From positions 1 to 41,977 of the IMG/VR virus record IMGVR_UViG_2563366853_000004: a stretch of 41,977 bases of DNA, one strand, 5' to 3'. Numbering within the stretch: position 1 is the first letter of the stretch; each line of letters starts with the position of its first letter. Of the stretch, positions 9,301-41,977 are shown piece by piece. The stretch comes from a virus (Duplodnaviria > Heunggongvirae > Uroviricota > Caudoviricetes). The notes under the pieces were generated by a model. The model had not been told where the DNA came from. It did no database searches and saw only the letters and a list, made by a program, of their open reading frames with translations. The translations under genes were made by a program, and so were the position numbers.

Positions 9301-9410
9301 AATAAGACCTCAACTCTTTTCCATCCGTCACGTAATTTACTGGTGATTCGTTCAAGTAAAGATTCGGAAGGGCAGCCAGCAACAGGCCACCCTGCAATGG
9401 CATATTGCAT
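9285..9410 (-). CDS. cIII: CIII-like FtsH inhibitor with shortened, divergent C-terminus
   Basis: MQYAIAGWPVAGCPSESLLERITSKLRDGWKR matches the lambda CIII N-terminus and core; GGAG upstream of the ATG at 9410; ends after 41 aa versus 54 in lambda. Confidence 0.75.
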   Translation of the reverse strand: MQYAIAGWPVAGCPSESLLERITSKLRDGWKRVEVLLCAMK

Positions 9411-9631
9411 GGTGTGCTCCTTATTTATACATAACGAAAAACGCCTCGAGTGAAGCGTTATTGGTATGCATATAAAAAGGCCCTCACACTGGAGGGCAAA
9501 GAAGATTTCCAATAATCAGAACAAGTCGGCTCCTGTTTAGTTACGAGCGACATTGCTCCGTGTATTCACTCGTTGGGATGAATACACAGTGCAGTGTTTA
9601 TTCTGTTGTTAGTGCCAAAAATAAAGGCCGA

Positions 9632-10255
9632 CTATGCGGCCTCGGAAGGAAGTCCAATCATCTTATTCAAATCTTCTACCCGTAAAGCAGGAAGTGCTGT
9701 ACTTGCTTTATCTGCTTCTTTTGGTAGCAATTCTTTGCTTTCAGGCCAAACTTCAATAAGTCGCTTAACTGTTGTGACTGAGTTCAAAGCAGCCCATACA
9801 TTTGATTCGATATCCTTTTTCTTGGCTTCAAGTTTTTGTTGCAATGCGCAGATTTCATCAAACCTTTTTGTTATTTCGTGTTCTGCGCTAAACATGCATT
9901 TATCTTTGGTCGGAGTAGGGAGCAATATATCTTCGCCGTTGCCGTCTTTCCCATATGAATGCCATCCAACCCTTCTGCCAGATACAGTCAGATAAATTGA
10001 AGTAGAACTAACATCGTATGAGTAAAATGAACATCCCATCTTTTCAAGTTCTTCACTTATAGCTACCAACTTGGATGATAACTGATCCACTTCCTCAGTT
10101 TTCTTTTTACCGCCAAACGCAATAACTCTGGCGTCAAGTGCAAGCTGGTTCTTTAACTTTGTTACTTCTTCAAGTTCAGTGAAAACCCCAGACTTAATTA
10201 AAGCGTTACGAGCGATTTCCTCTTTCATTCTCGTAGTTAAGCGGATTGATGACAT
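9632..10255 (-). CDS. Hypothetical 207-aa protein immediately downstream of N, AT-rich
   Basis: GAGG 7 nt upstream of the ATG at 10255 (MSSIRLTTRMKEEIARNAL…); no TM segments or recognisable motifs; occupies the ral/sieB position of the pL operon. Confidence 0.6.
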   Translation of the reverse strand: MSSIRLTTRMKEEIARNALIKSGVFTELEEVTKLKNQLALDARVIAFGGKKKTEEVDQLSSKLVAISEELEKMGCSFYSYDVSSTSIYLTVSGRRVGWHSYGKDGNGEDILLPTPTKDKCMFSAEHEITKRFDEICALQQKLEAKKKDIESNVWAALNSVTTVKRLIEVWPESKELLPKEADKASTALPALRVEDLNKMIGLPSEAA

Positions 10256-10266
10256 ATTAATTCCTC

Positions 10267-10593
10267 TCAAATAAGTGGTTTGCTGCCTAATTTCATTTTC
10301 TGGCGACCAACACAAGTCACGCCCATTTCACTGCGTGGCTTGCTGTACCATGTGCGCTGATTCTTGCGCTCAATACGTTGCAGGTTGCTTTCAATCTGTT
10401 CGTGGTATTCAGCCAGCACCGTAAGGTCTATCGGATTCAGTGCGCTTTCTACTCGTGATTTCGGTTTGCGATTCAGCGAGAGAATAGGGCGGTTAACTGG
10501 TTTTGCGCTTACCCCAACCAACAGGGGATTTGCTGCTTTCCATTGAGCCTGTTTCTCTGCGCGACGTTCGCGGCGGCGTGTTTGTGCATCCAT
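10267..10593 (-). CDS. N: Antitermination protein N
   Basis: MDAQTRRRERRAEKQAQWKAANPLLVGVSAKPVNRPILSLNRKPKSRVESALNPIDLTVLAEYH… is lambda N with a few C-terminal differences. Confidence 0.95.
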   Translation of the reverse strand: MDAQTRRRERRAEKQAQWKAANPLLVGVSAKPVNRPILSLNRKPKSRVESALNPIDLTVLAEYHEQIESNLQRIERKNQRTWYSKPRSEMGVTCVGRQKMKLGSKPLI

Positions 10594-10703
10594 CTGGATT
10601 CTCCTGTCAGTTAGCTTTGAGTAACGCGCCGTGATGCTTATCTCCACGGTTGCTGTCTTGCAGCTGCATTTCGCGCTACTCAAAGCCTTCTGCTTTGAAT
10701 GCT

Positions 10704-10734
10704 GCCCTTCTTCAGGGCTTAATTTTTAAGAGCG
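10704..10734 (-). promoter_or_regulatory. nutL (boxA CGCTCTTAAAAA and boxB GCCCTGAAGAAGGGC on the leftward transcript)
   Basis: Reverse complement of 10704..10734 gives lambda boxA and the boxB hairpin upstream of N. Confidence 0.85.
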
Positions 10735-10860
10735 TCACCTTCATGGTGGTCAGTGCGTCCTGCTGATGGCTAAATAGTACGATTTGTACTTTATCGAGTC
10801 AATACAAAATGTTCTAAATATAATTGGTTTTTTATAACACTTTGTATTTAATGGGTTTAT
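10735..10860 (-). promoter_or_regulatory. pL/OL region (leftward early promoter with candidate operator half-sites)
   Basis: Lies between the cI terminator and nutL; contains the inverted repeat AGTACgatttGTACT; operator sequences differ from lambda, consistent with the different repressor N-domain. Confidence 0.45.
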
Positions 10861-10863
10861 ATT

Positions 10864-10897
10864 TTGGAAAAAGAAAACCCGACGCTAAGGTCGGGTT
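10864..10897 (-). terminator. Rho-independent terminator downstream of cI
   Basis: Hairpin AACCCGAC-gctaag-GTCGGGTT followed by a U-tract on the minus strand, about 30 bp after the cI stop. Confidence 0.6.
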
Positions 10898-10927
10898 ATT
10901 GTTGTGTGTTTTAGAGTGGTGAGGCTG

Positions 10928-11586
10928 TTAACTAAATGTCTCTTCAGGCCACTGGCTGGCGATAACTTTCCCTACTACGGAACAGCTATCATTGCATGGA
11001 ATCATTGGATATTGCGGGTTTAGTGGCTGTAGGAACACCTGACCGCTATCCCTGATCAGTTTCTTGAAGGTAAACTCGTCACCACCAAGTCTGGCTATGC
11101 AGAAATCACCTGGCTCAACAGCCTGCTCAGGGTCAACGAGAATTAACATCCCGTCAGGAAAGCTTGGCTTGGATCCTGTTGGCGCGGTCATGGAATTACC
11201 TTCAACTTCAAGCCAGAACGCACAATCACTGGCTTTTTTGGTTGTGCTGACCCATCTCTCCGCATCACCTTTGGTAAAGGTTCTAAGCTCAGGCGAGAAC
11301 ATCCCGGCCTGAACATGAGAAAAAACAGGGTACTCATATTGTTTTTTAACGGGGGCAGATGAGTATTCGCCAACAGGTGAAAATGTACCGTCGTGGTTGA
11401 ATGAGACGTTATCAATACCAAGGTATTTAAACACCACACCAATCTCGTCAAGAGATGGATGACGAGATCCGCGCAACCAGTGACCAATTCCACCCTGCGT
11501 CATACCAAGCTCTTCAGCTAACTTCTCTTGAGTTATGCCGAGCTCTTTCATTCTGGATCTAGCCAGTTCATACCATTTCATTTTCA
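10928..11586 (-). CDS. cI: CI-type repressor: lambda C-terminal domain fused to a non-lambda N-terminal HTH domain
   Basis: The C-terminal ~130 aa ([38 protein letters not shown]…[15 protein letters not shown]) are near-identical to lambda CI; the N-terminal ~95 aa ([37 protein letters not shown]…) are not. Start is 11586 or 11580. Confidence 0.85.
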
Positions 11587-11698
11587 TACCCTTATTATTA
11601 CGCTCTGTACTAAAACCATCCATGCACAAGATGTATTTTTTGTTTGCATTCTAAAAGTACATATCGTATTATTGTTTCATGGTTACTATGGAGGGCAT
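11587..11698. promoter_or_regulatory. OR/pRM/pR divergent promoter-operator region
   Basis: 112-bp AT-rich interval between divergent cI and cro, containing AGTAC-type motifs (AAAGTACATATCGTATT) similar to the OL side. Confidence 0.55.
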
Positions 11699-11914
11699 AT
11701 GAGCAACCTACGAAAATATCGAGAGTCACTGAATATCTCTCAAACAACACTTGCTAAGGCAGTTGGATGCACACAGGGAGCTATCGGACATTGGGAATCT
11801 GGTCGTCGCTTCCCAGACCTTAAAACATGCCGTGCTCTTGTTGAGTGCCTAAACAAGTTAGGCGCAAAAGTCAGTCTTGATGACGTGTTCCCGCCGGAAC
11901 ACAAAGCCGCTTAA
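11699..11914 (+). CDS. cro: Cro-like HTH repressor (XRE family, not lambda Cro)
   Basis: GGAGGG SD; MSNLRKYRESLNISQTTLAKAVGCTQGAIGHWESGRRFP… shares the TQGxIGHW helix motif with the CI N-domain. Confidence 0.8.
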   Translation: MSNLRKYRESLNISQTTLAKAVGCTQGAIGHWESGRRFPDLKTCRALVECLNKLGAKVSLDDVFPPEHKAA

Positions 11915-11922
11915 GACATTCC

Positions 11923-11955
11923 AGCTCTTACACATCCCAGCCCTGAAAAAGGGCA
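11923..11955 (+). promoter_or_regulatory. nutR (boxA GCTCTTACA, boxB GCCCTGAAAAAGGGC)
   Basis: Exact lambda boxB hairpin and boxA-like element between cro and cII; the tR1 region follows. Confidence 0.85.
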
Positions 11956-12033
11956 TCAAATTAAACCACACCTATGGTGTATGCATTTATTTGCATACAT
12001 TCAATCAATTGTTATCTAAGGAAATACTTACAT

Positions 12034-12327
12034 ATGGTTCGTGCAAACAAACGCAACGAGGCTCTACGAATCGAGAGTGCGTTGCTTAACAAAATCGCAA
12101 TGCTTGGAACTGAGAAGACAGCGGAAGCTGTGGGAGTTGATAAGTCGCAGATCAGCAGGTGGAAGAGGGACTGGATTCCAAAGTTCTCAATGCTGCTTGC
12201 TGTTCTTGAATGGGGCGTCGTTGACGACGACATGGCTCGATTGGCACGACAAGTTGCTTCGATTCTCACCAATAAAAAACGCCCGGCGGCAACCGAGCGT
12301 TCTGATCAAATCCAGATGGAGTTCTGA
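12034..12327 (+). CDS. cII: Transcriptional activator CII
   Basis: [75 protein letters not shown]… is lambda CII. Confidence 0.95.
12042..12055 (-). promoter_or_regulatory. pRE CII-binding site (TTGCGTTTGTTTGC) within the cII 5' end
   Basis: Minus-strand TTGC-N6-TTGC repeat at the same position as lambda pRE. Confidence 0.75.
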
Positions 12328-12359
12328 GGTCATTACTGGATCTATCAACAGGAGTAATT

Positions 12360-12506
12360 ATGACAAAACAACTCAGTCCTTACCAGGACAAAATTCACAA
12401 ACACATACTACGTGATCGCTTCCTGTCCAGCTTCAAGCAGCCTGGTCGATTCCGGGCTGAGTTGGAAAAAGTGAAGCTGATGCAGAAGGAGAAAGGTCAT
12501 GAGTAA
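12360..12506 (+). CDS. Small hypothetical ORF between cII and the replication initiator
   Basis: Hand-translated 48-aa ORF with CAGGAG upstream; overlaps the O-like gene start; uncertain. Confidence 0.3.
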
Positions 12507-13359
12507 TCTTGCAACCGTAACACATTTAAGGCCTTCACAACGGCCTGTGGAGCGTTGTGTGGCAGAAGTTGAAGATGGTTATACCCGTCTTGCAAATGCC
12601 CTGTATGAAGAGCTTATCGGCGCTGATTTAACGAAAAATCAGAGCAAGGTTGCCCACGCCATATGCCGTAAAACATACGGCTACGGTAAAAAGATGGATC
12701 GCATCTCTGATAGTCAGTTAGCTCAAATTACCAGGCTGCCAAGACAGAAGGTAAACAAGGCCAAGAATGAGCTTATCGCGATGAAGGTTATCCTTCGCGA
12801 AGGCCAGCAAATCGGGCCTAACAAGAACATCGAGGAATGGCAAATCGAAGGATGTCACTACACTGGTGATAATGTCACTGCATTGGTGACAAAAAGTGTC
12901 ACCAAAACGGTGACAGCGCTGTCACCAAAACAGGGACACACAAAAGAAACTATTACAAAAGAAAAAAGAAATAATAAAAACACTATGTCCGAAAGTGTTC
13001 GGACGGAGTGTGAAAAATCACCTGACCGTCACGAAGAAACCGACAAGGCATTCGAGGAAATATTCTGGTGTGCAGGCATGCGAAAAGCCGGGAAGAAAAA
13101 CGCAGCTTCAGCATTCAGAACACAGTTCAGGGAATGGCGTAAAACTACAAGGGGTACGGCAAGCGAGTTTGCCACGATGCTGGCAGAAGACATCGCATGC
13201 AGGAATGGTAAGCAGTTCGGATTCGACAGGTTGTTACCATCGAGCTACCTGAACGGTCAGCGCTGGAACGACGAAAAGCCAGAAACCATTCAACCACAAT
13301 CCAAACCATCATCCGCAATCACCGTATCGAAAACTGGCTACGTGTTTTTCGACAGGTGA
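12499..13359 (+). CDS. O-like replication initiator (iteron-binding)
   Basis: 286-aa ORF at the lambda O position with the replication origin embedded in mid-gene, as in lambda O; sequence is not lambda O. Confidence 0.7.
12853..12990. repeat. Replication origin: four ~19-bp iterons plus an AT-rich tract
   Basis: TGTCACTACACTGGTGATA, ATGTCACTGCATTGGTGACA, AGTGTCACCAAAACGGTGACA, GCTGTCACCAAAACAGGGACA in tandem, then an A-rich stretch (AAACTATTACAAAAGAAAAAAGAAATAATAAAAACACT). Confidence 0.75.
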
Positions 13360-13466
13360 ACCATGAAATCAAAAATCAAATCGCTACTGGTCGCTGGTTA
13401 TAACCACGGCTGGTTAAGTATTTCGTTTGTCGATTTCTGGTTTAAAAATCTCAATCTGAGGGAATC

Positions 13467-15347
13467 ATGACGCCAAGTGAACTTAGCGACCTGCTTTGGG
13501 CGCAGGTTGACAGGGTGGCTCCGCACCTGTTGCCAAACGGCAAGAAAGAGGGGCATGAGTGGGTTGCCGGTAACGTCAACGGTGACAAGGGAAACAGCCT
13601 TAAGGTCAACCTTAGCGGCAAGAAAAAATGGGCTGATTTCGCTGAGGGAGACGGCGGTGACATGCTTGATTTGTGGATGTCATGTCGTGGAATTAACCTG
13701 CATCAGGCTATGCAGGAAGCGAAAGCATTTCTCGGTATCAAGGATGACGATCACCATTTCGATGCCAAACGTGAGAAGAAATTCTCCAGACCTGATCGCA
13801 AGAAAATCGCCCGCTACGTTACCAGAACAGAATCCCATCTTGAGTACCTGCAATCGCGTGGCATATCGCCAGAAGTCGTAAAGCGCTACGAGGTTGTCAG
13901 CGGCAAGGTGTGGAATGGAGAGCGGGAACTGGATGCTCTGGTGATTCCGTACAAACGCGATGGTGAGTTGTTGCAGGTCAAGCGAATCAGCACTGAGCGC
14001 CCGGACGGGAAGAAAGTCATTATGGCAGAAGGTGATTGCGAACCTTGTCTGTTCGGATGGCAGGCTCTGGACGCTGGCGTGAGGGCGGTTGTACTTTGCG
14101 AAGGCGAAATTGATTGTATGAGCTATGCGCAATACGGCATCTCGGCGTTATCCGTGCCGTTTGGTGGCGGGAAAGGCGCTAAGCAGCAGTGGATTGAGTT
14201 TGAGTATCACAATCTCGACAGGTTTGAGGAAATATTCATCTCGATGGACGTTGATGATGTTGGTCGTGAAGCCGCAAGGGAAATCGCAAGCCGACTCGGT
14301 GAACATCGTTGCCGTCTTGTTACTCTGCCGTACAAAGACATCAACGAATGCCTGATGAACGGTGTTACCGAGGATGAAATCTGGCAGTACATCGGCACGG
14401 CATCCTACTTCGATCCTGAAGAACTCTACAGCGCGCGAGAGTTTTACCAGGACACTATCAACGCTTTCTACGGCAAGCAGCAGTATCTGTTTAATCCACC
14501 GTGGGAATCTCTGGCAGATAAATTCCAGTTCCGTGAGGCCGAGTTGACGCTGGTCAATGGTGTGAACGGTCACGGAAAAACGGAGGTTGTCGGGCATATG
14601 GCACTTGAGGCAATGCGTCAGGGTGTGAAGACGTGCATCGCGTCACTTGAGCTGAAGCCAGGCATTCTCCTTAAGAGACTTACCCGTCAGGCGACGTGCT
14701 GCAAGATGCCGCCAGTGCTGGAAATTGACTCTGCATTTAAATTTTATGACGAAAGACTTTGGGTGTTTGGCCTGACCGGAACGGCGAAAGCCGACAGGCT
14801 GATCGAAATATTCGACTACGCTCGCCGCCGATACGGCATCCAGTTATTCATCATCGACAGCCTGATGAAATGTGGCATAGGCGACGATGACTATAACGGG
14901 CAGAAAGCGTTTGTTGACTCGATTTGCGATTTCAAAAACAAAACAAACTCCCACGTCATTCTCGTTACTCACTCGCGAAAAGGTGACAGCGAAGAAAAAC
15001 CAACCGGGAAAATGGACGTAAAAGGCTCTGGAGCGATAACAGACCTGACAGACAACCTTTTCATCATCTGGCGTAACAAGGCTCGCGAGAGAGCGTTACA
15101 GAGAGTTCAGAGTGGTGAAAAGATGTCAGAGAAGGACGAACAGCTACTGGCATCTCCGGCATCTGTTTTGATGCTTGAAAAACAACGTAACGGCGAAGGT
15201 TGGGAAGGTGGTGTCCCGTTGTTCCTTGACGAGCAATCGCACCAGTTCCTGCAACTTGAATCAGGATCGCCATATAGCTACATCGCCAATATGCCGAAAT
15301 CGGAATATGACGAGGCGTGGCGACAGGAAAACGTGACGGAGTATTAA
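13467..15347 (+). CDS. Bifunctional DNA primase (Toprim) and DnaB-like replicative helicase
   Basis: 626-aa ORF with GAGGG SD; N-terminal acidic motifs (VVLCEGEIDCMSY…ISMDVDDVG) suggest Toprim; C-terminal Walker A-like GVNGHGKTE and Walker B-like LFIIDSLM suggest a DnaB/RecA-fold helicase. Replaces lambda P. Confidence 0.75.
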   Translation: MTPSELSDLLWAQVDRVAPHLLPNGKKEGHEWVAGNVNGDKGNSLKVNLSGKKKWADFAEGDGGDMLDLWMSCRGINLHQAMQEAKAFLGIKDDDHHFDAKREKKFSRPDRKKIARYVTRTESHLEYLQSRGISPEVVKRYEVVSGKVWNGERELDALVIPYKRDGELLQVKRISTERPDGKKVIMAEGDCEPCLFGWQALDAGVRAVVLCEGEIDCMSYAQYGISALSVPFGGGKGAKQQWIEFEYHNLDRFEEIFISMDVDDVGREAAREIASRLGEHRCRLVTLPYKDINECLMNGVTEDEIWQYIGTASYFDPEELYSAREFYQDTINAFYGKQQYLFNPPWESLADKFQFREAELTLVNGVNGHGKTEVVGHMALEAMRQGVKTCIASLELKPGILLKRLTRQATCCKMPPVLEIDSAFKFYDERLWVFGLTGTAKADRLIEIFDYARRRYGIQLFIIDSLMKCGIGDDDYNGQKAFVDSICDFKNKTNSHVILVTHSRKGDSEEKPTGKMDVKGSGAITDLTDNLFIIWRNKARERALQRVQSGEKMSEKDEQLLASPASVLMLEKQRNGEGWEGGVPLFLDEQSHQFLQLESGSPYSYIANMPKSEYDEAWRQENVTEY

Positions 15348-16442: not shown

Positions 16443-16611
16443 CCCATCACAAACCATTCAATACCAGAAAGAAAGCGTCGAACGAGCTTTAACGTGCGCT
16501 AACTGCGGTCAGAAACTGCATGTGCTGGAAGTTCACGTGTGCTCCGATTGCTGCGCAGAACTGATGAGCGATCCGAATAGCTCAATGTACGAGGAAGAAG
16601 ACGATGAATGA
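16435..16611 (+). CDS. ninF: NinF
   Basis: [36 protein letters not shown]…ELMSDPNSSM matches lambda NinF. Confidence 0.85.
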   Translation: MLSPSQTIQYQKESVERALTCANCGQKLHVLEVHVCSDCCAELMSDPNSSMYEEEDDE

Positions 16612-17326
16612 GTTAATAAATGGCAATGCCATCAAAATGACAAGCATTGAAATCGCTGAGTTGGTGGGTAAGCGTCATGACAATGTGAAACGTACCATCG
16701 AAACGCTGGCTAAAAATGGTGTTATCCGGCTTCCTCAAATTGAGGATTGTGGAAGAATCAATGGGTTAGGCTTAAATCAAAGTTTTTGTGTGTATGTATT
16801 CGAAGGCGAACAAGGAAAGCGAGACAGTATTGTCGTTGTAGCCCAGTTGTCGCCGGAATTCACCGCTCGTCTTGTTGACCGTTGGCGAGAGCTTGAAGAA
16901 ACTGCGGTTAATATCCCCAAAACGCTACCAGAAGCGTTGCGCCTTGCTGCTGATCTTGCTGAGCAGAAAATGCAACTGGAAAACCAGCTCGCAATTGCCG
17001 CACCTAAAGTTGAGTTTGCCGATCGCGTTGGCGAGGCCAGCGGAATTTTGATTGGAAACTTTGCAAAGGTTGTCGGTATTGGTCCAAACAAACTGTTTGC
17101 GTGGATGCGCGATCACAAAATCCTTATTGCTTCAGGTTCCCGGCGCAATGTGCCAATGCAGGAATATATGGATCGCGGCTATTTCACAGTGAAAGAAACA
17201 GCGGTCAACACAAATCACGGAATACAGATATCGTTCACCACAAAAATCACCGGGCGTGGTCAACAGTGGCTGACCAGAAAGCTGCTCGATAACGGAATGC
17301 TGAAAGTAACAGGGGAGGCTGCTTAA
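16604..17326 (+). CDS. Phage antirepressor-like protein (Rha/Ant N-terminal with KilA-C type C-terminal domain)
   Basis: 240-aa ORF; domain architecture recalled from Ant/KilAC-family antirepressors; not a lambda gene. Confidence 0.6.
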   Translation: MNELINGNAIKMTSIEIAELVGKRHDNVKRTIETLAKNGVIRLPQIEDCGRINGLGLNQSFCVYVFEGEQGKRDSIVVVAQLSPEFTARLVDRWRELEETAVNIPKTLPEALRLAADLAEQKMQLENQLAIAAPKVEFADRVGEASGILIGNFAKVVGIGPNKLFAWMRDHKILIASGSRRNVPMQEYMDRGYFTVKETAVNTNHGIQISFTTKITGRGQQWLTRKLLDNGMLKVTGEAA

Positions 17327-35013: not shown

Positions 35014-35508
35014 TTATTTTATAGTTTTTATGAATTCTTTATTAAATCCCTTCGCTTCTCCGGGGTATCTTCCGAAGACAATTTTTATAAAAACAGAAAA
35101 AATAAAGATAGCAACGCTTAACAACAATTGCAGTATCATTGGAACCCAAAGAACTACAGGCTCTATATTCATGAAACCAAATATTCTTCCGGCGATCATG
35201 GCGAAGTACCACACTGTTATCAGCAAACTTAGTGGCATATGAATTACTGATATTACCAATCCAAGAGCATCAGTAATTCTGTTTTCAAATTTTTCAGGGG
35301 AAAACTTTTCTTTAAGGTAATTCAGTGCGCAGGCCTCATTCTCTGGATTTTCAGCATTTTTCCCTATAGCAATAGAAATCTCAGATATCCTTGATTCAAT
35401 TCTTTTACGTTTAATAAAACTAGAAAAAAAGAACCACGCAATCTGCAACCCTATCCCCAGAAATAGAGTTGCGGCAACTAGCACAGCGTAACTCATAGAA
35501 TCAGACAC
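35014..35508 (-). CDS. AT-rich three-TM inner-membrane protein; candidate SieA-like superinfection-exclusion protein
   Basis: AGGAGG 6 nt upstream of GTG 35508 (alternative ATG 35496); hydrophobic segments [41 protein letters not shown] and [24 protein letters not shown]; opposite strand to the late operon, at the P22 sieA position. Confidence 0.5.
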
Positions 35509-35538
35509 ACCAACCTCCTTAGTTTTGCGCAGGATACC

Positions 35539-35904
35539 ATGAAAAAAGTTAACATTGGAAACGTACCAAAGATGCTCGTTCCGCTCTTTGAGAGCGGTAC
35601 AATTGTGTTTTGTAGAGACTTTCCAGAATGGCAACGCCTGCATCAAAAACTTGGCGTTGACGTGCATGACTCGGACGCCAACGGAGCGTCTCATACAATG
35701 AGTAGCGAGAATGGTGTTTTGCATGTGATAGGCGTGTTCAATGGCAAACTATCTACTATTGCCCATGAGTGCGCTCACATGGCATTCGATATCTGCTCAA
35801 GGGTAGGTGTTGATGTTGAACCAGGAAGAGCCAACGAGACTTACTGCTACTTAATGAGCAGGCTTGTTGAGTTCTGCGAGCGACATATCAAAAAGCCGGA
35901 GTGA
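35539..35904 (+). CDS. Small HExxH-motif protein (putative Zn-metallopeptidase-like)
   Basis: 121-aa ORF containing [10 protein letters not shown]; its stop lies within a bidirectional terminator hairpin. Confidence 0.5.
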
Positions 35905-35930
35905 CCCGGCTTGATTATTACTTTTTGCTG
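35893..35930. terminator. Bidirectional intrinsic terminator between the HExxH gene and the convergent small gene
   Basis: AAGCCGG-agtgac-CCGGCTT hairpin flanked by T-tracts on both strands. Confidence 0.55.
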
Positions 35931-36097
35931 TCTGGAGTTCGCTTATCCAATACCCAGCCATGACCTGGCTTTGTTGTTGGTGGAAGCCTTTCGTTGTCCT
36001 TGACGGTTGCAAAATTGTCTTTCTTACCGCCGCGTGGGCCAACTTCTTGGTATATTCCGCCGTTTTTTCCTGTGTTTTCACCTGGTTTTTTCGCCAT
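35918..36097 (-). CDS. Small Gly/Lys-rich hydrophilic protein (59 aa)
   Basis: GAGG 6 nt upstream of the ATG at 36097 (MAKKPGENTGKNGGIYQEVGPRGGKKDNFATVKDNERLPPTTKPGHGWVLDKRTPDSKK); possible own promoter (TTGACT … AATATT) at about 36110..36150. Confidence 0.5.
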   Translation of the reverse strand: MAKKPGENTGKNGGIYQEVGPRGGKKDNFATVKDNERLPPTTKPGHGWVLDKRTPDSKK

Positions 36098-36187
36098 GAT
36101 ATACCTCAACATACACCCGTTATTGGGCGATTAAATATTGATCTCATTTTATAAGTAGTCAATATGGCCCAGGTAAATGCAAAAATT

Positions 36188-36211
36188 AACCCACCTTCAG
36201 GTGGGTTTTTT
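36188..36211. terminator. Hairpin terminator at the mnt 3' end (possibly bidirectional)
   Basis: AACCCACC-ttca-GGTGGGTT followed by TTTTTG; overlaps the mnt stop codon. Confidence 0.5.
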
Positions 36212-36448
36212 GTACAAATCCTTCAGCGTATCAAACACCATCTTCTTAACAAGCTCTGACTGCTCATCAGCGATGCGTTCCGCATCGTCTCGATAGCCTG
36301 AAATTTTGGATGGCTTTGATACAGCATCAGTCACTATCTGAACTAATTCTGAATTAAGAGAGCGGCCATTGGATTTGGCTCGCTGTTTTAGTTTTTCCTT
36401 TAATTCGTAAGGTAGCCGCAGATTAAATTGCGGGTCATCTCTTCCCAT
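36197..36448 (-). CDS. mnt: Mnt-type ribbon-helix-helix repressor (P22 immI)
   Basis: MGRDDPQFNLRLPYELKEKLKQRAKSNGRSLNSELVQIVTDAVSKPSKISGYRDDAERIADEQSELVKKMVFDTLKDLYKK closely matches P22 Mnt as recalled. Confidence 0.85.
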   Translation of the reverse strand: MGRDDPQFNLRLPYELKEKLKQRAKSNGRSLNSELVQIVTDAVSKPSKISGYRDDAERIADEQSELVKKMVFDTLKDLYKKPT

Positions 36449-36511
36449 TCTTGATGCCTCGCTTTTGTGAGTGGATCGGCATCTTATTATCTGCTGGTTG
36501 CATCCTCAATA

Positions 36512-36526
36512 AGACCACAGTGGTCT
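36512..36526. promoter_or_regulatory. Candidate Mnt operator (perfect palindrome AGACCAC-A-GTGGTCT)
   Basis: 15-bp palindrome between mnt and the tailspike start, similar in form to the P22 Omnt sequence as I recall it. Confidence 0.5.
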
Positions 36527-36594
36527 CTTTGTTTGATTAATAATGCATCACTGTGGCAATGCTGCGGCGATTCCTTGTATCTGGAGCAAATTAA

Positions 36595-39540
36595 ATGACA
36601 GACATTACAGCCAATGTTGTAGTGAGTATGCCTTCGCAACTCTTCACTATGGCGCGTTCTTTTAAAGCCGTAGCCAATGGCAAAATTTATATCGGTAAAA
36701 TTGACACTGACCCGGTAAATCCTGAAAACCAGATTCAGGTTTATGTAGAGAACGAAGACGGTTCTCACATTCCTGTTTCGCAACCAATAATCATTAACGC
36801 TGCTGGATATCCGGTATATAACGGACAGATTGCCAAATTCGTAACCGTGCAAGGCCATTCTATGGCTGTTTATGATGCGTATGGTACACAGCAGTTCTAT
36901 TTTCCGAATGTGCTGAAGTATGATCCTGATCAGTTACGACAGCAATTAGAAGACCCAGATGGAGCGAATAAATACCCAAAACTTCAGATAGCAAGATGGA
37001 GAGACAGTTATGATGTAAGAGGTTGGGGGGCTATTGGTGATGGTGTTCATGATGATACATCAGCTCTATCAGAATTACTTTCTGTTGCAACAGGTGGTGA
37101 AAAGATAGATGGGCGAGGGCTTACTTTTAAAGTATCAACTCTTCCAGATGTCAGTCGATTTAAAAATGCTCGTTTTTTATTTGAGAGAATACCGGGTCAG
37201 CCTCTTTTTTATGCTTCTGAAGATTTTATCCAAGGAGAGTTATTTAAAATTACAGATACACCGTGGTACAACGCCTGGACGCAGGATAAAACGTTTGTAT
37301 ATGACAATGTCATCTATGCGCCTTTTATGGCTGGAGACCGCCATGGTGTAAATAACCTCCATGTTGCATGGGTTCGCTCAGGAGATGACGGGAAGACCTG
37401 GACAACGCCGGAATGGCTTACAGATTTACATGAAAACTATCCCACAGTTAACTATCACTGCATGAGTATGGGGGTTGTCAGAAATCGCCTTTTTGCTGTA
37501 ATTGAGACGCGGACCGTGAGCGGAAATAAACTGCAGGTTGCAGAGTTGTGGGATCGCCCAATGAGTCGCAGCCTTCGCGTTTATGGTGGTATAACGAAAG
37601 CAGCAAATCAGCAAGTCGCTTATATTCGCATTACTGATCACGGATTATTTGCTGGTGATTTTGTCAACTTCTCAAACTCTGGTGTTACAGGTGTTACCGG
37701 GAATATGACGGTGACTACTGTCATTGATAAAAATACTTTTACAGTTACGACGCAAAATACCCAGGATGTGGATCAGAATAACGAGGGTAGATACTGGAGT
37801 TTTGGTACATCATTTCACTCGTCACCATGGAGAAAAACCAGTCTTGGAACTATTCCTTCTTTTGTTGACGGAAGCACTCCTGTTACTGAGATTCACAGTT
37901 TTGCGACGATTAGCGATAACAGTTTTGCTGTTGGCTACCATAATGGTGATATTGGTCCACGCGAGCTTGGGATACTCTATTTCTCTGATGCTTTCGGTTC
38001 TCCTGGTAGCTTTGTTCGCAGACGCATACCTGTAGAATATGAGGCGAATGCATCTGAGCCATGTGTAAAATATTATGATGGCATTCTGTATCTGACGACC
38101 AGGGGGACATTAAGTACTCAACCCGGTAGTTCATTGCACAGAAGCTCTGATTTAGGTACATCATGGAATTCTCTTCGCTTCCCAAATAATGTTCATCACT
38201 CAAACCTTCCTTTTGCCAAAGTTGGCGATGAGCTGATTATTTTTGGCAGTGAGCGCGCATTTGGTGAGTGGGAAGGAGGAGAACCTGATAACCGTTATGC
38301 AGGAAATTATCCAAGAACATTTATGACCAGAGTTAACGTCAATGAGTGGAGTCTGGATAATGTAGAGTGGGTTAATGTTACTGATCAGATTTATCAGGGC
38401 GGAATAGTTAACTCTGCGGTTGGTGTTGGTTCAGTTTGTATCAAAGACAACTGGCTGTACTACATTTTCGGTGGGGAAGACTTTCTAAACCCATGGAGCA
38501 TAGGGGATAACAACAGAAAATATCCTTATGTTCACGATGGTCACCCGGCTGATTTGTATTGTTTCAGGGTGAAAATTAAACAGGAAGAATTTGTTTCAAG
38601 GGATTTTGTCTACGGAGCCACTCCTAACAGAACGCTTCCTACTTTTATGTCGACGTCAGGCGTGAGGACGGTTCCTGTACCCGTTGATTTCACAGATGAT
38701 GTTGCCGTCCAGTCACTGACTGTCCATGCAGGTACATCAGGACAAGTTCGCGCGGAAGTCAAACTTGAGGGTAATTACGCCATTATTGCGAAGAAAGTAC
38801 CGTCTGATGATGTTACCGCTCAGAGATTAATCGTTAGCGGAGGTGAAACAACGTCTTCAGCAGATGGTGCAATGATAACGTTGCATGGTTCCGGAAGCAG
38901 TACTCCACGTCGCGCGGTATATAACGCACTCGAACATCTTTTTGAGAACGGAGATGTTAAACCTTATCTTGATAATGTAAATGCTCTTGGTGGTCCGGGA
39001 AACAGGTTCTCGACAGTTTATCTTGGCTCCAATCCTGTGGTTACCAGTGACGGAACATTAAAGACAGAGCCGGTCTCTCCTGACGAAGCATTGCTGGATG
39101 CCTGGGGTGACGTCAGGTATATCGCTTATAAATGGCTGAACGCTGTCGCTATAAAGGGGGAAGAAGGGGCGAGGATACATCATGGTGTAATCGCGCAGCA
39201 ACTTCGTGATGTTCTTATTTCTCACGGACTCATGGAAGAAGAAAGCACAACATGCCGCTATGCCTTTCTTTGCTATGACGATTATCCCGCAGTATATGAT
39301 GACGTCATTACTGGCCAAAGGGAAATGCCGCTGACTGATAATGACGGGAGCATCATTGTTGATGAGGATGATAATCCAGTGATGGTAATGGAAGACATCA
39401 TTGAGCGCGTTGAAATAACGCCAGCAGGATCTAGATGGGGGGTCAGACCTGATCTCTTATTCTATATCGAGGCGGCATGGCAGCGCAGAGAAATAGAAAG
39501 AATAAAAGCTAGGTTAGACTTAATAGAAGGGAAGCACTAA
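36595..39540 (+). CDS. Tailspike: P22-type N-terminal head-binding domain, endosialidase-like catalytic region, C-terminal intramolecular chaperone domain
   Basis: N-terminus [58 protein letters not shown] matches the conserved P22 tailspike N-domain; the central region is unlike P22 gp9 and its endosialidase assignment is from memory of CUS-3/K1F; the last ~160 aa resemble the self-cleaving chaperone domain with a candidate cleavage motif VVTSDGTLK. Confidence 0.8.
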
Positions 39541-40261: not shown

Positions 40262-40738
40262 TTAACTAAACATCGCAGTAATCGAGGCACTCGCCAGAGA
40301 GTGAAAATGAACGTTAAACCCGACCATCGCGCCGCTGGCACCTTCATCGACATCAATACGTTCTACATCCAGCGCGTGAACGGTAAAAATGTAGCGATGG
40401 GTTTCGCCTTTCGGCGGCGCTGCGCCATCGTACCCGGTTTTACCAAAGTCGGTACGCGTCTGCAAAACGCCGTCTGGCATAGCTACCAGACCAGAGCCAA
40501 ACCCTTGCGGTAATACGCGGGTATCAGCGGGTAAATTAACAACTACCCAGTGCCACCAGCCGGAGCCGGTTGGCGCATCCGGGTCATAGCAGGTGACAAC
40601 AAAACTTTTCGTTCCCGCAGGAACATCATCCCACGCCAGATGCGGTGAAATATTATCGCCATCGTAACCCATGCCGTTAAAGACATGACGATGCGGCAGC
40701 TTATCGCCATCGCGCAGATCGTTACTGATGAGTTTCAT
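40262..40738 (-). CDS. ybhB: YbhB (PEBP/RKIP-family protein), host gene flanking lambda attB
   Basis: 158-aa translation with a PEBP-like signature (…CYDPDAPTGSGWWHWVVVNLPA…); recalled as the gene to the right of attB. Confidence 0.85.
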   Translation of the reverse strand: MKLISNDLRDGDKLPHRHVFNGMGYDGDNISPHLAWDDVPAGTKSFVVTCYDPDAPTGSGWWHWVVVNLPADTRVLPQGFGSGLVAMPDGVLQTRTDFGKTGYDGAAPPKGETHRYIFTVHALDVERIDVDEGASGAMVGFNVHFHSLASASITAMFS

Positions 40739-40846: not shown

Positions 40847-41977
40847 ATGAAACGCGCATATAAATACCGGTTTTACCCGACAACTGAGCAGGCTGAGCTT
40901 TTAGCTCAGACGTTTGGCTGTGTGCGCTTCGTCTACAATTCCATCCTTCGTTGGCGTACCGATGCGTACTACGAGCGAAAAGAAAAGATCGGTTATCTAC
41001 AGGCCAACGCTCGCCTTACGGCGCTCAAAAAAGAGCCTGAATACATATGGCTGAATGATGTTTCCTGCGTTCCCCTCCAGCAGTCGTTGCGCCACCAACA
41101 AGCCGCCTTTGCTAACTTCTTTGCCGGACGAGCTGCATATCCGGCTTTCAAAAGCAAACGGCACAAACAGGTGGCTGAGTTCACTGCCAGCGCGTTTAAA
41201 CACCGTGACGGCGAGTTGTATATAGCAAAGAGCAAGTCGCCGCTGGATGTTCGCTGGAGTCGAGAATTACCATCTGCGCCGTCAACCGTTACCATTTCCA
41301 GAGATAGCGCTGGCAGGTACTTTGTTTCCTGCCTGTGTGAGTTTGAACCTGTATCAATGCCTGTTACCGCTAAAACGGTCGGCATTGATGTGGGCTTAAA
41401 AGATTTATTCGTCACCGATACCGGATTCAAAACCGACAATCCCCGCCACACCGCTAAATATGCGAAGCGATTAACGCTGCTACAGCGACGTTTAAGCAGG
41501 AAGCAAAAAGGCTCAAGAAACCGAATTAAAGCCCGCTTAAAGGTCGCCCGACTCCACGCGAAAATCGCCGATTGCCGGATGGACAATCTGCACAAGTTGT
41601 CCCGCAAACTGATTAACGAAAACCAAGTTGTTTGCGTCGAATCCCTCAAGGTGAAAAACATGATCCGCAACCCGAAGCTGTCTAAAGCAATAGCTGACGC
41701 AGGCTGGAGCGAACTTGTTCGCCAGCTCCAGTACAAAGGCAAATGGGCCGGGCGGTCAGTGGTCGCCATTGACCAGTATTTACCGTCCTCAAAATGCTGT
41801 AGTTGCTGCGGTTTCACCATGCAAAAAATGCCTCTTAATGTTCGTAAATGGCACTGCCCTGAATGCGGCGCAGACCATGATCGCGACATTAACGCGGCAC
41901 GTAATATTAAAGCTGCCGGGCTGGCAGTGTTAGCCCACGGAGAGCCTGTAAACCCTGAATCGCAGCACGCGGCTTAG
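40847..41977 (+). CDS. tnpB: TnpB (IS200/IS605-family OrfB; RuvC-like RNA-guided endonuclease)
   Basis: 376-aa ORF with N-terminal MKRAYKYRFYPT, RuvC-I-like GIDVGLKD, C-terminal zinc finger CCSCC…CPECG and RuvC-III-like DHDRDINAARNI; no tnpA nearby. Confidence 0.85.
   Translation: MKRAYKYRFYPTTEQAELLAQTFGCVRFVYNSILRWRTDAYYERKEKIGYLQANARLTALKKEPEYIWLNDVSCVPLQQSLRHQQAAFANFFAGRAAYPAFKSKRHKQVAEFTASAFKHRDGELYIAKSKSPLDVRWSRELPSAPSTVTISRDSAGRYFVSCLCEFEPVSMPVTAKTVGIDVGLKDLFVTDTGFKTDNPRHTAKYAKRLTLLQRRLSRKQKGSRNRIKARLKVARLHAKIADCRMDNLHKLSRKLINENQVVCVESLKVKNMIRNPKLSKAIADAGWSELVRQLQYKGKWAGRSVVAIDQYLPSSKCCSCCGFTMQKMPLNVRKWHCPECGADHDRDINAARNIKAAGLAVLAHGEPVNPESQHAA

Follow-up and report, generated by a model that had tools for sequence, protein, structure and literature searches.

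A lambdoid immunity region with a lambda-type CI C-terminal domain and a non-lambda recognition module in a P22/HK620-like prophage

The viral record IMGVR_UViG_2563366853_000004, a stretch of 41,977 nucleotides referred to here as the window, carries a lambdoid immunity region made up of a CI-type repressor gene, a cro gene and two sets of predicted operators, OR and OL. An earlier note, made from the sequence alone, had described positions 10864-11914 as a hetero-immune region with a chimeric cI gene, a non-lambda cro gene, altered operators and no rexAB. These coordinates enclose cI, OR and cro, but the OL operators (10775-10849) lie just to their left.

Repressor, Cro and operators

The cI gene lies on the minus strand at 10928-11587 and encodes 219 amino acids when read from the ATG at 11587, as in the list of open reading frames (ORFs). 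Pfam recognizes an HTH_3 domain at residues 11-58 (8e-11) and a Peptidase_S24 domain at residues 87-209 (9e-29), and the best match in PDB is the lambda repressor, 3bdn (E=2e-96). The N-terminal helix-turn-helix (HTH) domain is coded by approximately 11339-11587 and the hinge, cleavage site and S24 C-terminal domain by 10928-11338. From YEYPVF to the end of the protein, 133 of 136 residues are those of lambda CI, the only changes being S to C, E to D and the terminal G to S. The VQAG, GNSM and FKKL motifs of lambda CI, which in that protein mark the cleavage site and the Ser/Lys dyad, are all kept, and with HTH and Peptidase_S24 domains, an Ala-Gly site and a Ser/Lys dyad, the protein has the features of a lambda-type, LexA-like S24 repressor. 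Residues 1-84, by contrast with the C-terminal part, share only scattered identities with lambda CI, nothing beyond those of a generic HTH, so that the repressor is indeed a chimera.

At the nucleotide level, the C-terminal coding sequences of the window, the Shiga toxin (Stx) phage type and lambda are roughly equidistant (91.5-93.2% identical in pairwise comparison), and no more than 1-4 of the 28-35 differences in each pair are non-synonymous. The equal distances and the scarcity of amino acid changes argue that the combination of a lambda C-terminal domain with a foreign N-terminal domain is old and under purifying selection, and did not arise from a recent cross with lambda itself.

Two annotation details concern the cI gene. 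Databases often start it at an upstream ATG at 11623, giving 231 amino acids; as that codon falls within OR2 and precedes the predicted pRM -10 element, the longer form is probably an over-extension. The VT2-Sakai annotation splits the gene into cI and a ‘c1 repressor fragment’ (L008, 3901-4596), which suggests a frameshift or a sequencing error.

The cro gene (11699-11914, plus strand) encodes a 71-amino-acid protein with a Pfam HTH_3 domain (1.4e-12). Cro does not align with lambda Cro, and instead aligns with the N-terminal domain of the window’s own CI (35% identity, E=5e-13), the two having in common the motif TQG[GA]IGHW at the position of the recognition helix (TQGGIGHW in CI). In PDB, it matches a ‘lambda repressor-like protein’ (2.4e-16) and, far more weakly, the N-terminal domain of P22 C2 (E ~6e-3). 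Cro is thus an all-helical HTH_3 protein outside the lambda Cro fold family, and both the non-lambda character and the shared recognition motif that had been read from the sequence hold.

Six 17-bp predicted operators flank cI, three on each side. OR spans 11596-11671 and consists of OR3 (11596-11612, TATTACGCTCTGTACTA), OR2 (11622-11638, ATGCACAAGATGTATTT) and OR1 (11655-11671, AAGTACATATCGTATTA), and OL spans 10775-10849 and consists of OL1 (10775-10791, TAGTACGATTTGTACTT), OL2 (10800-10816, CAATACAAAATGTTCTA) and OL3 (10833-10849, TATAACACTTTGTATTT). All six are two-fold symmetric. Their half-sites are of the form (T/A)A(G/A)TAC, with the consensus (T/A)A(G/A)TAC(A/g), in which A5 and C6 are invariant in 12/12 half-sites. 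Sequences within one mismatch of AGTACN5GTACT occur three times in the 42-kb window, all of them in OL or OR, where 0.40 would be expected, and none of 100 shuffled sequences reached three. At two mismatches the count, 16 against 9.1 +/- 3.1 expected, is not significantly above chance, and only the count at no more than one mismatch is informative. The lambda operator consensus (of the TATCACCGC..GTGATA type) has no match anywhere in the window with up to three mismatches, in agreement with the claim that OL and OR carry AGTAC-type repeats and not lambda operators. The same sites are annotated in AP005153, where OL and OR are each given three putative operators and pR and pRM are marked as well.

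The operators are unevenly spaced, with centre-to-centre distances of 25 bp for OL1-OL2 and 33 bp for OL2-OL3, and of 33 bp for OR1-OR2 and 26 bp for OR2-OR3, compared with about 23-24 bp in lambda. The closely spaced pair is promoter-proximal at OL and promoter-distal at OR.

Promoters, terminator and an empty slot behind cI

Predicted promoters are interleaved with these operators. A pR-like promoter found by consensus scan (11643-11672, plus strand; -35 TTTGCA, 18-nt spacer, -10 TATTAT) has its -10 element overlapping OR1, and its position agrees with that of the promoter annotated in AP005153; OR2 sits 4 bp upstream of its -35 element without overlapping it. On the minus strand, a candidate pRM-like promoter (11594-11622) was too weak for the consensus scan and was read directly from the sequence, with -35 TGGATG at 11622-11617, a 17-nt spacer and -10 AATAAT at 11599-11594. 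It corresponds to the ‘putative maintenance promoter’ of AP005153. OR3 covers its -10 element and spacer, and OR2 abuts its -35 element. Because the A of the cI start codon (11587) comes 7 nt after this -10 element, the cI mRNA is probably leaderless, as the lambda cI message is. At the other end of the region, a pL-like promoter on the minus strand (10774-10802; -35 TTGACT, 17-nt spacer, -10 TACTAT) overlaps OL1 and OL2.

Between cI and OL lies an intrinsic terminator of the cI transcript (10876-10897, minus strand), with an 8-bp stem followed by the T-run TTCTTTTT. The hairpin follows the cI stop codon after only 30 nt, and the order of cI, terminator and then OL with the pL-like promoter (read from 10802 to 10774) is as the earlier note had it. 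The terminator is homologous, at 88.9% identity, to lambda 35799-35834, just beyond rexB, and its stem bears a compensatory change of a G-C to an A-T pair, from CCCGGC/GCCGGG in lambda to CCCGAC/GTCGGG in the window. Searching the window with lambda RexA and RexB by tblastn returned nothing better than E=4.8, with no rex remnant detectable, and the interval from cI to N measures only 334 bp; rexA and rexB are absent, as had been claimed.

What takes their place differs among related phages. The slot, bounded by the cI stop codon and the terminator, corresponds to 10876-10927 in the window, to 35825-37114 in lambda, where it holds rexAB, and to 1800-2886 of L004 in phage phi458. In phi458, a 1.09-kb insert stands between the cI stop codon and the same terminator, there with the lambda version of the stem, and encodes a 348-amino-acid protein of unknown function (phrog_6191) that has no Pfam or PADLOC match. 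The slot is also empty in phages Dewey and 683R2 and in the lambda-like prophage of strain 2015C-4136CT1, that is, on at least three different phage backbones. Because a homologous terminator follows rexAB in lambda and the 348-amino-acid gene in phi458, and closes an empty stretch here, the stretch behaves as a variable cargo slot whose contents are expressed with cI in the lysogen, and rexAB is missing since this slot is empty in this phage.

It is possible, though on balance doubtful, that the slot was once filled, with rexAB or another cargo behind cI in an ancestor, and was emptied by deletion, as the homology of the terminator to the one behind lambda rexB would suggest, along with the loading of relatives at exactly the same place. 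Set against such a loss are the lack of any detectable rex remnant, the mere 30 nt left between stop codon and hairpin, and the recurrence of the same empty layout on at least three backbones. The empty state may thus be ancestral or the product of a deletion.

The earlier note had gone on to suggest that the exclusion functions were relocated or replaced, a suggestion that finds no support: the slot is simply empty, and the only recognizable exclusion gene of the window stands outside the immunity region. This is a SieA-like superinfection-exclusion gene of about 164 amino acids (35014-35508, minus strand) beside Mnt-like and tailspike genes, identified by a full-length profile match to phrog_7745 (1.9e-108) and without a PADLOC or Pfam match. 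It stands in the late region, at its usual position in P22-like phages, and is a native feature of the backbone, with no relocation of rex. A relocated rex or sieB was also considered and rejected: tblastn with RexA, RexB and a partial SieB query gave no significant match, and PADLOC gave none for eight early-left and late-region ORFs, nor for the slot cargo of phi458 and of the Stx1 phage.

The remainder of the early regulatory circuit is of lambda type, as the earlier note had also stated. The pL leader with nutL (10681-10768, minus strand) is 100% identical over 88 bp to lambda 35496-35583, with the boxB hairpin at 10704-10718, and leads into a lambda-type antiterminator gene, N (10267-10593, minus strand), of 108 amino acids (Pfam N36, 1.5e-26; 94% DNA identity to lambda N). 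To the right of cro, the nutR/tR1/cII block (11921-12367, plus strand) is 98.2% identical to lambda 38247-38693 and includes cII itself (12035-12327, plus strand) and, on the minus strand, a pRE CII box, TTGCGTTTGTTTGC (12043-12056), that matches TTGCN6TTGC. An Rfam Lambda_thermo element (9365-9423, minus strand; 88.5 bits, E=2e-20) points to a start of cIII of the lambda type; the C-terminal end of the cIII-like ORF appears to differ from that of lambda cIII.

Homology to lambda therefore resumes at four places: 10681-10768, the cI hinge and C-terminal stretch at 10934-11338 (93.8%), 11921-12367, and N. Perfect identity begins at 10768, just downstream of the pL-like promoter. These four stretches place the predicted module joints in the linker between the CI domains, at about pL +1 (with the transcription start placed as in lambda) and just past the cro stop codon, and make the region a clean illustration of lambdoid mosaicism.

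A catalogued immunity type

The block from the N leader through OL, terminator, cI, OR and cro is by megablast 99.3-99.5% identical to phages Dewey, Louie, vB_EcoP-683R2 and 720R6, and about 98% identical to phi458. Its cI-cro part is 93% identical to Nil2, to the Stx1-converting phage AP005153, to Stx2-II (AP005154), to 2851 and to the PA-series Stx2 phages, and 92.8% identical to VT2-Sakai (NC_000902). The N-terminal domain of CI agrees with that of the Stx1-phage (AP005153) CI at 81 of 84 positions, the whole HTH including the recognition helix being identical, and Cro agrees at 70 of 71, the sole differing residue lying far from the HTH. The six operators stand in the same order in the relatives. 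In the five near-identical phages they differ from those of the window by 0-1 nt; Dewey, whose cI is nucleotide-identical to the window’s, has single-base differences in OL3 and OR2, and OL3 differs by single bases between the window and the group of Dewey, Louie, 683R2, 720R6 and phi458. In the Stx phages, 1-2 nt set each operator apart from its counterpart in the window, and most of these changes fall in the central five bases, largely at positions 8-11, the A-C core and most flanking half-site positions being unchanged.

The Stx phages VT2-Sakai, AP005153, AP005154, Nil2 and 2851 thus have the CI mosaic, Cro, six operators and pR/pRM layout of the window, and carry the ‘Eru2/Eru3 repressor’ (Clade I) of Fagerlund et al. 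They differ in their DNA divergence of about 7%, in some 1.5 kb of ORFs between cI and OL, including one for a 173-amino-acid phrog_2602 protein, and in an N of another type, and the lambda-like terminator was not seen next to their OL3. The counterpart CI of an O157:H7 prophage that carries the region is WP_001302016.1, described as the ‘Eru2 repressor’ and identical to the Eru3 repressor (PMC8044961). The Eru2 and Eru3 CI proteins, identical to each other, belong to Clade I and, of the CI proteins described, come nearest to that of lambda, with an overall identity of 61% (PMC8951638), which is the value expected from a lambda C-terminal domain joined to a foreign N-terminal domain.

Among phage records, 63 have a CI N-terminal domain at least 95% identical to that of the window, followed by a gap to 60-80% (four records) and below, and the nearest N-terminal domains outside the type among the records listed, those of the Salmonella phages epsilon34 and g341c and of phage L c2, are only 54-55% identical. 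With the next-nearest domains so distant, the immunity type is discrete. It is also common. The immunity determinant (11330-11914) was found in 776 of 5,426 complete Escherichia coli genomes, about one in seven, with 115 E. coli genome records at 99% identity or more and 566 at 90-95%, and it occurs on the different backbones of P22-like phages, Stx-converting Traversvirus phages and a lambda-like prophage.

With high confidence, then, we regard the region as the primary immunity (immC-type) switch of a P22/HK620-like lambdoid prophage, of the type already catalogued as that of VT2-Sakai, Nil2, the Stx1 phage, Stx2-II and 2851. This type is known, sequenced, annotated and common, and is not new. 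The earlier note had read a distinct immunity specificity from the region; relative to lambda this stands, the N-terminal domain, Cro and operators all being different, but a match to a known immunity type, which the same note had named beforehand as evidence to the contrary, is what the N-terminal domain (81/84), Cro (70/71) and operators provide. We attach little weight to the region as a discovery; what it illustrates is a common immunity module moving between lambda-like, Stx-converting and P22-like backbones. Because the Stx2 phages of O157:H7 use the same switch, its biochemical characterization would be useful.

Several points weigh against this assignment or limit its reach. The window’s sub-lineage has diverged by about 7% in DNA from the Stx-phage copies, its N-terminal domain has three substitutions, none of them in the recognition helix, and its operators are altered in their central bases, so that strict homo-immunity between the two sub-lineages is a prediction from the sequences. 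The operators are labelled ‘putative’ even in the reference annotation AP005153, and those of this widespread type are, as far as we found in the literature, predicted only; the one set of binding data found concerns lambda CI and the operator sites of a phage with this type, VT2-Sakai (PMC10742460). Since the OL and OR spacings differ from those of lambda, the lambda scheme of cooperativity, including the choice of operator pairs, may not carry over unchanged.

The divergence between sub-lineages raises the idea that the window’s lineage (Dewey, 683R2 and phi458) has drifted to an immunity functionally distinct from that of the Stx-phage lineage, by way of the operator central bases and the three N-domain substitutions. 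The identity classes of the genome records are indeed two and separate, every operator differs between the lineages, and in phage 434 the central bases of the operator are read indirectly. We nevertheless consider such a divergence improbable, as the recognition helix and whole HTH are identical, the A-C core (half-site positions 5-6) and most flanking positions are unchanged, and Cro has a single, distant substitution; changes of this size usually alter affinity, not specificity. That the region holds a previously unrecognized specificity, a new chimera of the lambda CI C-terminal domain with a novel DNA-binding domain and operators, is very improbable indeed, for although it differs from lambda in all three recognition components and, among the phage records listed, the nearest N-terminal domain outside the type is the 54-55% one given above, with no classical lambdoid type appearing there, near-identical copies stand in published phages and in the 776 E. 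coli genomes (megablast, tblastn), the same chimera is found in AP005153, AP005154, AJ413274 (Nil2) and NC_000902, with annotated operators, and this type of CI has already been classified in the literature.

Three further assignments were tried and rejected. Identity with a classical lambdoid type found no support, none having appeared among the phage records listed and PDB having given only the weak P22 C2 matches; 434, phage 21 and HK022 were not compared directly. Phi24B and 933W do not share the type, as the published description of the Phi24B immunity region makes it identical to that of 933W, with only two left operators. The CI types of the Stx2a switch regions in a 2023 paper have little identity to lambda CI and are of another type.

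Taken as a switch of the VT2-Sakai/Nil2 type, the region invites comparison with three model systems. It resembles lambda in the CI hinge and C-terminal domain, the terminator of the cI operon, the 3+3 arrangement of 17-bp operators, the logic of pRM, pR and pL, and the N, nutL, nutR, cII/pRE and cIII thermoregulator elements, and differs from it in the CI N-terminal domain, operator sequence, Cro family, operator spacing and the presence of rexAB in lambda. With the immC switch of P22 it has in common an all-helical HTH_3 Cro homologous to the repressor N-terminal domain, although the two are only weakly related in sequence. Phage 434 likewise has an HTH Cro homologous to the N-terminal domain of its repressor, with shared recognition-helix residues and hence shared operators. 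Operators are 14 bp long in 434 and 18 bp in P22.

By analogy with these three phages, we propose that the region works as a bistable switch like that of lambda in which the parts for DNA recognition have been exchanged; promoter use, the order of operator occupancy, cooperativity, autocleavage and the resulting immunity are predictions from its anatomy. CI would dimerize through its lambda-type C-terminal domain and bind the three OR and three OL operators through its non-lambda HTH domain. Bound at OR1, together with OR2, and at OL1 and OL2, it would occlude pR and pL; at OR2 it would probably stimulate the weak pRM, and at OR3 it would shut pRM off. Cro, an HTH protein resembling a paralogue, would use its own copy of the TQGxIGHW helix to bind the same operators and shut off pRM. 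Repression would be established through cII and pRE, with the lambda-type N, nutL and nutR, cII/pRE and cIII supplying the rest of the circuit. Because the window’s CI has the hinge Ala-Gly site and the Ser/Lys dyad of the lambda protein, induction would be expected to follow from RecA-stimulated autocleavage at the conserved Ala-Gly site, which would inactivate CI.

A more speculative and rather unlikely proposal has two parts: that in a polylysogen the window’s CI joins lambda-type CI, or any other prophage repressor that has the same C-terminal domain, in mixed dimers or tetramers, and that the OR1-OR2 and OR2-OR3 spacings of 33 and 26 bp shift the cooperative pair, giving a switch unlike that of lambda. 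If so, mixed oligomers could weaken both immunities or couple induction. Neither repressor cross-talk nor a spacing effect would be specific to this window.

The surrounding prophage

Over the first 25 kb of the window, the best megablast matches are P22/HK620-like E. coli podoviruses, namely vB_EcoP-720R6, 683R2, Kapi1, HK620 and Dewey, with 36-55% coverage and 96-98% identity. Dewey and Louie are classed as Lederbergvirus (PMC12243541). The late region of the window has portal and terminase genes, a gene for a 981-amino-acid tailspike, and SieA-like and Mnt-like genes. At the left end, a 356-amino-acid integrase adjoins a 427-amino-acid host gene in the ORF map, a layout that is also the ybhC-integrase arrangement of the prophage in strain 2015C-4136CT1. 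The window is a Lederbergvirus-like prophage with lambda-like early regulatory genes, probably integrated at the lambda attachment site.

Within the early region, the first gene of the pL operon downstream of N encodes a 207-amino-acid Nmad5 protein (9632-10255, minus strand), with a full-length Pfam Nmad5 match (1.2e-71) and membership in phrog_1965, of unknown function. Nmad5 stands for ‘nucleotide modification associated domain 5’, and such a gene is unusual at the position where lambda has sieB next to N. The replication module (12499-15347, plus strand) comprises an O-like initiator of 286 amino acids followed by a 626-amino-acid primase/helicase fusion (phrog_239, 4e-171). It differs from lambda O/P, and the modules of the Dewey/683R2-group relatives also differ from it. 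Further right, the nin region includes a Rha/KilAC antirepressor-like gene (16604-17326, plus strand).

The tailspike gene (36595-39540) is directly preceded by the SieA-like and Mnt-like genes (35014-36448, minus strand), the latter with Arc and Repressor_Mnt domains. This pair has neither arc nor ant between its members, and the Mnt-like gene resembles an orphan of an immI region. Towards the right end, a host-like gene of 158 amino acids (40262-40738) precedes an IS605-family OrfB/TnpB-like ORF (40847-41977, plus strand) that runs off the end of the window and has Pfam HTH_OrfB_IS605, OrfB_IS605 and Cas12f1-like TNB domains; this ORF lies just beyond the right end of the prophage.

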